A stretch of 64,000 nucleotides of DNA from Octopus vulgaris. Taxonomy: Eukaryota. Of this stretch, positions 8,244-14,820 are shown one piece after another (positions within the stretch are counted from its first letter, which is position 1; each line of letters begins with the position of its first letter). The stretch is taken from contig OX597834.1 of NCBI GenBank assembly GCA_951406725.2, positions 7,440,001-7,504,000 of the forward strand. The letters run 5' to 3'. The translations under genes and the position numbers were made by a program. Under the pieces are notes generated by a model that worked only from the letters and a program-made list of their open reading frames with translations, was not told the origin of the DNA and made no database searches.

Positions 8244-8664
8244 TAATTTGGAGCTCTTATTTGGAGCTATGTGTTCTGGGTTCGAACTCTTTAAGCAACA
8301 TTTTACGTCAGCACCTCCCGAGTCGGATACGGTTAATAGAAAATATATAAACGCCATCTCAAGTACACACACACATTCACGCATACATGCACACATACAT
8401 AACTACACACCCATACATGCGTATACACACATGTATACATATAAACACGCACAAACTAATTGCGTTGACAAATGTCCCGTTTGTTTCGCTCTGTAGAATA
8501 TTTCCAAAATTATTTTGAGAAGTTCTTTGGAGCAAAACATACTCTTGACGTACACACATATATATTGAACAATATGTGGTTTGTTTGGAAATGTTTGATA
8601 TTAATAAATATCATTTTCTTTGATCTACTTTATTGTCTCTATTTTTCTATCGAATAATCCCATC

Positions 8665-12191: not shown

Positions 12192-12502
12192 GGCGATGTG
12201 CTGGCAGAATCCTCAGCACGCCAGGCAAAAATGCTCAGCGGTAAATTCACCCGTCACTACGTTCTGAGTTCAAATGCCGTCGAGTTCGACTTTGCCCTTC
12301 ATCCTATCGGGGTTGAAAGAATGAAACCTCTGCGCCATATGCCTTCACCTAAATCACTACATGTGCGTGATTTTCATACGTACCCATTACGTATGGTATC
12401 AAATGTGTGTGCATGTGTCTGTATATCTATGTTTATGTGTACGTATTTGTGTGTCTATATATATATGTGTGTGTATCTCTCTCTTTTCTTCTATATAATA
12501 TA

Positions 12503-13252: not shown

Positions 13253-13287
13253 ATATATATATATATATTTATTATTTTATAGAAGGA

Positions 13288-13336
13288 GTTTCTACAGGAC
13301 TAGAACTGTTTCATTCAAAAGAAATCATCAGGAAGC
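13288..13336 (-). ncRNA. Mirror-image hammerhead ribozyme motif
   Basis: Same motif on the minus strand; stem I has one mismatch (GCTTC/GAAAC). Confidence 0.65.
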
Positions 13337-13383
13337 TTCCTGATGATTTCTTTTGAATGAAACAGTTCTAGTCCTGTAGAAGC
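13335..13383 (+). ncRNA. Minimal type I hammerhead ribozyme motif
   Basis: GCTTC-CTGATGA-t(TTC tttt GAA)t-GAAA-CAG ttctagtc CTG-TA^GAAGC: stems I, II and III form and the core is intact, with a GUA cleavage site after 13378. Confidence 0.75.
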
Positions 13384-13466
13384 ACCTTCTATAAAATAAA
13401 TTAATTTACTCTGCTCTGTATTGAGTACCTTATTTACTGTGGTTAACCCCGACTCAACCCGGGACC

Positions 13467-13518
<52 letters not shown>

Positions 13519-13522
13519 CAAG

Positions 13523-14820
13523 TACATGGTCTGATCAATAAGTATCCGGACTGTTGCCATAGTAACGAAGCTAAAGCACGCAGAGTGGTGCTACTTTCAC
13601 AGATTTGACCCTAAACTCTGCTGTGCATGCGAACTAAGTCTTAACGTTCTTGTTCACTTTCTCTGTTTACAGGAAGGTGTGTAGCGTGTGATCATTGCAT
13701 TGAACACGCAGAAAAAATTGAGCAGAGAAAGCGGTGTGCTGGCAGAAACGTTAGCACGCCGGATGAAGTGCTCAGCGGTATTTCGTCTGCCGTTACGTTC
13801 TCAGTTCAAATTCTGCCGAGGTCGACTTTGCCTTTCATCCTTTCGGGGTCGATTAAACAAGAACCAGTTACACACTGGGATCGATATAATCGACTTAATC
13901 CGACTCTATAGGCATAACGATCTTAAATCTGCCAACATCTGATATAGTCAGAGATGTATGCAGAGTCATGGAGTCGTTCTGCCGATTCATGAAAACGTTG
14001 AAAATATCAGATATTGCTTATTTCAGGATTAAAATCGCATAGCCGTTCTCACGTTCGGAACAGATGTGGCTATTGGGAAGAAGACCAAGTAGACTTCAGC
14101 TATCTCTTGGCTGTGTTTTAGAATTTCGTCTGCTGAACGCGTTTTGGCAAGTCTGAAGAGAGAGAATAATTCCTGTCTGGAAAACGTCTCATCAAATTCA
14201 AGTAACGTTAGAGAAAGAAGGCGGTGATAGAGAAGATTTTGCCCCAGAAAATTATATATAAGAAAGTTGAAAAAGGGGACACTGGTATGGTTAAATGAAC
14301 TCACGATAACCGTGTGGCTAGAGCCTGGGGAAATGAACTGCATTAGGTCTAAGGTGAGTTAAGATAATCAAAATCGGGGTCGATTAAATGAGAACCAGTT
14401 ACACACTGGGGTCGATATAATCGACTTAATCCGTTTATCTGTCCTTGTTTGTCCCCTCTGTGTGTAGCCCCTTGTGGGTAGTAAAGAAATAGGTATTTCC
14501 TCTGCCGTTACGTTCTGAGTTCAAATTCCGCCGAGGTCGACTTTGTGTTTCATCCTTTCGGGATCGATAAATTAAGTGCCAGTTACGCACTGGGTCGGTG
14601 TAATTGTCTGTCCTTCTTTGTCCCCTCTGTGTGTAGCCCCTTGTGGGCAATAAAGAATTTATAAAAATTTGAGCAGAGAATCTGCATCAAATTTTGCTAA
14701 AATCTTGATGATACCTGTTGAGAGGCCTACGCAAAGTTTATCGCTCTCCACACGATCAAGGAGATCTTGTGTAACTAAAACCCAAGTGTCATTTTAGTCA
14801 GCTGAAAGTAGTTTGGCACC
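13523..14820 (+). mobile_element. Interrupted and rearranged mariner relic
   Basis: TIR-like TACATGGTCTGATCAATAAGTATCCGGAC; EQRICIKFC transposase N-terminus at about 14670-14740; an inverted VPKLLSAD..QDLL piece at 14740-14820; split by an insert at 13730-14662. Confidence 0.7.
13730..14662 (+). mobile_element. SINE family C composite insert carrying about 470 bp of unrelated DNA
   Basis: C head and body at 13730-13901, C bodies at 14375-14660; flanked by direct repeats AAAAATT(T)GAGCAGAGAA. Confidence 0.75.

Follow-up and report, generated by a model that had tools for sequence, protein, structure and literature searches.

Background

Hammerhead ribozymes in Penelope-like elements (PLEs), their pairing on opposite strands, inverted pseudo-long terminal repeats (pLTRs), junction palindromes, tails and the Hydra clade of these elements have all been published already. 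Here we analyse a palindromic structure of this kind in a 64,000-nucleotide stretch of the Octopus vulgaris genome (assembly GCA_951406725.2, contig OX597834.1, positions 7,440,001 to 7,504,000; "the window"), together with the class of short insertions to which it belongs and the Hydra-type element behind them. These insertions, which we call stubs, probably arose by twin priming on an uncleaved sense mRNA, with both internal sites in its 5' untranslated region (UTR), and by subsequent run-off of the complementary DNAs (cDNAs) at the cap and end-joining.

Statements on earlier work refer to the sections of the cited sources that were consulted. Elements of the Hydra clade are generally shorter than 3 kb, with a tail of 30-40 nt and (TA)n targets (Craig et al. 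2021, PMC8557442). For PAc, a Poseidon element of Anolis, in vitro work placed the tail between two internal starts of the reverse transcriptase (RT), with both target strands extended and uncleaved RNA as the substrate (Frangieh et al. 2024, PMC11167929). Palindromes in Adineta vaga were attributed to self-priming on an antisense template, and an unspliced sense template was left open (PMC3846280). Dual hammerhead motifs on opposite strands, 100-700 bp apart, are known from Schistosoma (Cervera and de la Pena 2014, PMC4209133). How PLEs retain introns and acquire head-to-head inverted ends is described as an open question (PMC3846280, for antisense template versus unspliced sense RNA; PMC8557442), and selection for intron-containing copies has been suggested (PMC2377424).

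Results

The window locus and its class

Two arms of 64 nt, at 13272-13335 and 13336-13399, form an inverted repeat with a spacer of 0 nt, 97% complementarity and 2 mismatches over 128 bp in total (fold z-score -21). The zero-spacer palindrome reported in the initial annotation was thereby confirmed by an inverted-repeat search, and the extra ~70 bp on its right side and the (TA)n flanks on the left (13253..13268) and right (13471..13510) are as described there. We number the element with 13336 as position 1 and 13334 as -2. The long (L) arm then covers -2 to 135 (13334..13470, plus strand), that is, the putative 5' end of the transcript, a hammerhead and a tail of ~70 nt. It ends at 13470 with GGGACCTACA, directly followed by (TA)n; in intact copies of the element the same sequence runs on into an open reading frame (ORF). 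The short (S) arm covers -2 to ~64 in inverted orientation (13272..13337, minus strand) and also ends in (TA)n. The two arms overlap in the 4 nt AGCT at 13334..13337.

The locus itself is unremarkable and belongs to a large class of stubs from a known clade. The genome (2.8 Gb in 227 contigs) contains 5,734 exact copies of a 31-mer from the ribozyme arm and 706 copies of the window's exact junction, against 0 for the control. All of the first 50 exact-junction loci listed pair one arm that ends at 135 with one that ends near 66, inside (TA)n. Among the first 100 arm matches there are 31 head-to-head pairs, 30 of which consist of one S and one L arm, the remaining L arm being scored as partial; the separation between arms ranges from 49 bp to 9.7 kb. 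The S termini have their peak at 64-66, the L terminus lies at 135, and ORF-bearing arms end at either; several calls that put S arms at -184..-254 reflected spurious alignments and were disregarded. The offset between them is the one-sided tail of PLEs, here ~70 nt long (13402..13470, plus strand). It ends with a predicted stem-loop with an AC-rich loop and is likened to the PAc tail (PMC11167929). Some loci carry junction variants, with ~170 nt of foreign DNA between the arms, short duplications or small untemplated inserts (L183, L190, L195 and L246).

Stubs of a sister family are spliced

A second Hydra-type family (L277; G000:C4:127709800-127719700), with frames of 828-840 aa and 1,034 exact motif copies, forms short head-to-head hammerhead pairs too (loci L363-L422), with a tail of ~85 nt. 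Its 5' UTR contains a 23-nt exon, a GTAAGT donor, an intron of 1,828 nt and a TTTTAG acceptor 9-10 nt before the hammerhead. Short arms open with the 23-nt piece, which in long copies sits 1,828 nt upstream of the ribozyme, and genome-wide 531 junctions are spliced and 434 unspliced. We inspected 30 distinct spliced arms, 19 ending at S and 11 at L. None of them enters the ORF or passes the initiator-like TC|ACTTC; one uses an alternative donor 4 nt downstream. Two arms that had scored "1" have an exon with a 2-nt variant, and inspection by eye shows extensions of 18 and 23 nt for them. All 23 unspliced arms, some of which may be one locus fetched twice, run into the intron. Because the short arms are precisely spliced and, among those inspected, neither enter the ORF nor pass the initiator, they are copies of the 5' end of a spliced sense mRNA.

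The 5' boundary in the family of the window

About half of all arms in the window's family stop at -2 or no more than 25 nt from it. The positions -2..+15 are kept in 5,995 arms, and ~3,055 arms reach -27 (3,080 minus 25 for the control). In one chromosome stretch we placed 114 arms, using an anchor that leaves out arms starting after +24: 23 start at -2, 54 at -1..+24, 8 at -11..-58 and 22 beyond -60, and the 7 further arms called at -7/-8 are probably chance extensions of -2. All 62 promoter-bearing arms (43 of them from one subfamily) have a TATAAAT at a distance of exactly 22 nt before the AG, with spacer sequences that differ among subfamilies, which puts a TATA box 29 nt upstream of -2. 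AGCT pairing does not fully account for the boundary, since many loci combine an arm that starts at -2 with a partner that starts at +3 to +20, with a microhomology of 1-3 nt. A G that often precedes -2 at junctions was considered as a cap-templated extra base and is usually explained by the partner arm. From the sequence, -2 would be the transcription start, and the 6-bp stem I would begin with the first transcribed base. The AGCT at 13334..13337 is likely the point where the 3' ends of two cDNAs annealed at this putative start; the overlap itself, its recurrence and the TATA spacing point in this direction.

With twin priming retained, -2 could have another origin in this family: a splice acceptor with an unseen exon, a pause of the RT at the ribozyme fold, or a joining hot spot at AGCT. 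We regard this as rather unlikely. The AG|C does have upstream pyrimidines and the sister family has its acceptor at a similar place, but AG itself is kept in the arms and no exon-1 sequence recurs at the junctions. Likewise, AGCT favours joining, but the many arms that begin at -2 opposite a partner at +3..+20, and the constant TATA spacing, speak against such an origin.

Pairing of the arms

In 35 of 37 ungapped pairs the two arms of a stub have matching haplotypes (5.2 expected; the 13 of 50 loci that had indels were left out beforehand), which points to one source for both. Such agreement would also follow from fold-back self-priming of one strand, be it a single cDNA or an antisense transcript, as put forward for rotifer PLEs (PMC3846280); the AGCT at the boundary is self-complementary, and junction palindromes are known. 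However, at some loci L spans 81/82-135 and S ~1-66, with no shared sequence, and at others S reaches further upstream than L. Neither kind of arm can be copied from its partner, and simple fold-back is excluded by the arms that share no sequence. Since, moreover, both termini are fixed and the sister-family stubs have lost a GT-AG intron on the sense strand, we consider inversion by self-priming very unlikely.

We consider it highly improbable that the enzyme of the parent copies the ~200-bp palindrome as a unit, as it would a non-autonomous element: its 706 exact junctions, its very uniform structure and the existence of non-autonomous PLEs (MRC1, PMC8557442; retrozymes) speak for it, but each of the five main subfamilies with promoter-bearing copies has palindromic stubs as well, junctions vary between loci and the same microhomology junction is found with either arm truncated, the unit lacks the element's promoter because it starts downstream of the TATA box, 16 of the rare variants in the 37 pairs are single-arm and locus-specific (3 are common to both arms), and the A>G excess expected of a double-stranded RNA template is absent from the genomic arms examined. 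The stubs are head-to-head and dispersed, rather than head-to-tail tandems like the non-LTR retrozymes. Judged from subfamily spread and junctions, they probably have no lineage of their own. The palindrome is thus probably no self-propagating mini-element, and its initial description as a very small non-autonomous PLE derivative, taken in that sense, finds no support. As to the double-stranded RNA suggested there as a possible ADAR or Dicer substrate, the genomic arms give no sign of an A>G excess.

The parent element

Tracing the sequence upstream of the motif led to copies with a pLTR-ORF-pLTR structure, such as L077, whose unit of 7,172 bp is frameshifted. An intact ORF of 713 aa, encoding RT and GIY-YIG, was found at L238:972-3110. 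The 135 nt of the window continue directly into its 5' UTR, with the ATG ~180 nt after position 1. The initial annotation had assigned the motif to the pseudo-LTR of a PLE, within an inverted 5' arrangement, and had suggested a search for genomic copies linked to a GIY-YIG/RT ORF; its assignment is borne out by this autonomous parent.

The ORF joins RT with a GIY-YIG domain at the C-terminus in a single frame, with YRDDG and VY..SYIG motifs, RWR in place of RWK (RWK is found in the sister family) and DKT. By eye, it has a CxCX5C linker (CNCPDKTTC), CxxC and CxH around E and N (CDLC..E..N..CMH) and no CCHH. A search returned 1,118 homologues, some annotated as PF00078/PF01541, and at least 150 RT copies score in the genome, most of them >90% identical. 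Insertions lie in (TA)n targets and show a pLTR with hammerhead, tandem or inverted copies and a tail.

These features agree with those given for the Hydra clade in PMC8557442, namely an ORF with RT and C-terminal GIY-YIG, RW[K/R], DKT, CxCX5C, CxxC/CxH and no CCHH, and, at the level of the insertion, (TA)n targets, a pLTR hammerhead, an inverted 5'-truncated copy and a tail on one end. On its sequence, the parent is an autonomous Hydra-clade PLE; the comparison with named Hydra sequences was by eye, and the ORF of the octopus family Hydra-1_Obim (supplement of PMC8557442) differs by eye from that of the parent. Unlike the elements described in that source, the octopus unit measures 5.2-7.2 kb, with a long microsatellite-like 3' region, the tail has ~70 nt, and thousands of arms are truncated at one boundary. 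A Naiad/selenoprotein reading was ruled out by the C-terminal endonuclease and the lack of an in-frame TGA.

Some further observations concern this element and its relatives. The 3' region of the parent (L077:900-5500, minus strand) is a ~4.6-kb stretch of (GT)/(AT)-like sequence that contains inverted pieces. A second, unrelated hammerhead-like match in L077 (2847-2930, E 6e-4) was possibly captured from another PLE. Many RT copies share a frameshift in the C-run after SWYNPP, and open frames with a length of exactly 506 or 280 aa are seen repeatedly; this may reflect recurrent slippage, an assembly error or the spread of a broken copy. At least four further Hydra-type families are present (L269 at G000:C5:2193500-2203400, L268, L272, L284 and L285), some with frames of 775-843 aa. 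L269 has a hammerhead at 8497-8540, and none was detected upstream of its ATG.

Within the window, no host exon was recognised among the 64 ORFs of at least 120 aa, which are mostly simple repeats when read by eye. Copies of one unrelated dispersed repeat lie at 12193-12343, 13731-13902 and 14374-14657, and a 117+68-nt inverted pair at 14045-14226/14817-14996 resembles a small inverted-repeat element.

The hammerhead motif

Each arm contains, in order, stem I, CUGAUGA, a U.U followed by a 3-bp stem II, GAAA, a 4-bp stem III with a CTAG loop, and GUA; the conserved core (CUGANGA / GAAA / UH) and the three helices of a hammerhead are thus all present. The plus-strand type I hammerhead occupies 13334..13384, with stem I at 13334-39/13379-84, CUGAUGA at 13340-46, GAAA at 13359-62 and a predicted cut at 13378|13379, after element position 43. 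The minus-strand copy occupies 13287..13337, with a predicted cut at 13293|13292. The initial annotation had proposed complete type I hammerheads on either strand. The motif does occur on both, with the 3-bp stem II given there, but the arms are not identical and stem I of the family has 6 bp (AGCUUC/GAAGCU). The minus-strand copy carries G47A, a mismatch within stem I at 13289 (GAAAC instead of GAAGC), and the plus-strand copy carries T49A, which is rare (11 versus 5,734 genomic copies). An apparent A/T hypervariable site at position 49 among the first 30 loci was rejected as ascertainment bias from using the window as query, in view of these genome-wide counts.

Alone, the bare core pattern CUGAUGA-N12-GAAA (13340-13362 on the plus, 13331-13309 on the minus strand) is weak, with 4 matches in the window against 1.14 expected. 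A covariance model trained only on 32 hammerheads of related elements from other data sets ranked the two arms as the best two matches in the window (E 5.7e-8 and 1.6e-5; next E 0.2). Matches to Rfam miRNA families fell below the gathering scores and were discarded as hairpin artefacts. Applied to 77 related loci in metagenome contigs, a hammerhead descriptor matched 54 in sense and 2 in antisense orientation, against 0-1 in ten shuffles. Most of the matches are located ~175-250 nt ahead of the ORF, or else shortly after it.

The G10.1-C11.1 pair of usual hammerheads is replaced by U.U in the window. Among 41 distinct related motifs, a few of which are likely false matches, U.U is the commonest closing (17 of 41; G-C in 10). 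Hydra-type hammerheads in metagenome contigs (L286-L362) often have stem II closed by U.U, and one (L311) has a U3-A8 core variant. In stems I and II of relatives, 10 of 12 pairs changed on both sides, a count biased by the choice of rows with a descriptor that requires pairing; no compensatory changes were found inside the window's own young family. There, subfamilies differ only at N7, in loops II and III, and at position 59, which is outside the motif. The sequence comparison argues that the hammerhead is under structural constraint in the parent element.

A loop III variant strengthens the self-duplex from -12.8 to -15.2 kcal/mol. In the 142-nt RNA of an intact copy, a competing 8-bp hairpin at element positions 40-58 (13375..13393, plus strand) has a pair probability of ~0.78, as compared with ~0.2 for stem I, and is predicted to mask the cleavage site as an off-state. 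On these models the hammerhead is probably a conserved part of the parent that depends on a dimer or a protein and is held off by the hairpin over the cut site. By analogy with PMC4209133 and PMC11167929, its activity may be low or may need a dimer or a protein. Minimal PLE hammerheads (PMC4209133) and those of non-LTR retrozymes (bioRxiv 10.64898/2026.07.22.740005) are likewise type I, with a palindromic loop 3 and a probable dimer; unlike them, the octopus motif has U.U for G10.1-C11.1, a longer helix III and a head-to-head instead of a tandem arrangement. In a stub, both hammerheads are most plausibly passengers that came along with the 5' end of the mRNA.

Discussion

Proposed mechanism

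In L1 twin priming two target-primed cDNAs are joined by microhomology, and retroviral strong-stop DNA is a short cDNA that ends at the 5' end of its RNA. The octopus stubs can be likened to both, but here priming would take place at two structured internal sites and not at poly(A) or a tRNA site. As we picture it, both nicked ends of a (TA)n target would prime reverse transcription at these sites. With the enzyme on the copy of the sites in the 5' UTR, the cDNAs would reach the cap after ~70 and ~140 nt, run off and be joined head to head. In the family of the window, their 3' ends could anneal at the self-complementary AGCT to give perfect palindromes, and joining at microhomologies of 1-3 nt would yield near-perfect ones. 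With the enzyme placed on their downstream copy, in a read-through RNA, long ORF-bearing arms that keep promoter and intron would result. Cap-dependent splicing of first introns offers one possible reason why a downstream intron would remain unspliced. The S and L termini would be the RT start sites, by analogy with the in vitro result for PAc. We thus infer four parts of the scheme: a TATA-driven start at the boundary, RT starts at the termini, annealing at AGCT, and downstream priming of the long arms. The template must be uncleaved, as in PAc, because the cDNAs cross the cut site.

The scheme resembles the PAc system (PMC11167929) in the tail bounded by two internal RT starts, the AT-rich target, the extension of both strands, the uncleaved template and the protein-assisted hammerhead. 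PAc belongs to another clade, its starts lie in the ORF instead of the 5' UTR, and the consulted sections of that source describe neither run-off stubs joined at the transcript 5' end nor spliced products. With Penelope of Adineta vaga (PMC3846280), the octopus elements share an inverted pLTR that is shorter than the direct one, a junction palindrome, and TATA plus initiator in the pLTR; in contrast, the spliced octopus stubs point to a sense mRNA and two cDNAs.

Several points weigh against this interpretation. The start site, expression and cleavage are putative, as the material consisted of assembled contigs; loose ends at -2, 66 and ~137 and no joints were seen in four such sets, and contigs of this kind cannot show starts or expression. 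The evidence for splicing comes from the sister family and not from that of the window, where the -2 boundary also reads like a splice acceptor. Only 6 of the 41 related motifs have a strict TATA box at the matching distance (1 and 0 in the neighbouring bins). The concordance of the arms could stem from subfamilies active at different times or from conversion between arms. Template switches also occur, as seen from a few loci at which a short arm is joined to a longer one or foreign DNA lies at the junction. As to the assignment of motif and parent, the Rfam hammerhead families, named at the outset as a check on the motif, gave no match at E ≤ 10 in the window, a direct Pfam scan of the 713-aa ORF gave no relevant match, and the lengths of unit and tail exceed the <3 kb of Hydra elements and the 30-40 nt of PLE tails, values that are descriptive rather than diagnostic.

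Implications for Penelope-like elements

Neither spliced PLE stubs in a genome nor a start-site boundary were found described in the literature searched, including the consulted sections of PMC2377424, PMC13282606 and PMC12910113; subscription literature was outside the scope of the search. The stub class carries mechanistic information on the open PLE question. The coexistence, in one genome, of hundreds of precisely spliced short arms with long arms that keep the intron argues for reverse transcription of spliced sense mRNA, with stubs as its only product, and the loss of the intron in sister-family stubs would help to explain how PLEs keep introns. The stubs have also scattered hundreds of perfect hairpins of ~65 bp through the octopus genome, and they bring to light a recurrent U.U hammerhead variant that is missed by Rfam. 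The young families with intact ORFs are reagents for direct in vitro work.

We lean slightly towards a more general rule, by which the PLE RT always starts at two fixed internal sites, so that capped, spliced mRNA yields only short, dead-end "strong-stop" pairs and full-length copies need the downstream, unspliced repeat. If true, this two-site rule would account together for inverted pLTRs, for junction palindromes, for the one-sided tail and for intron retention, and the element's start site and splicing would be recorded in the genome by its stubs.
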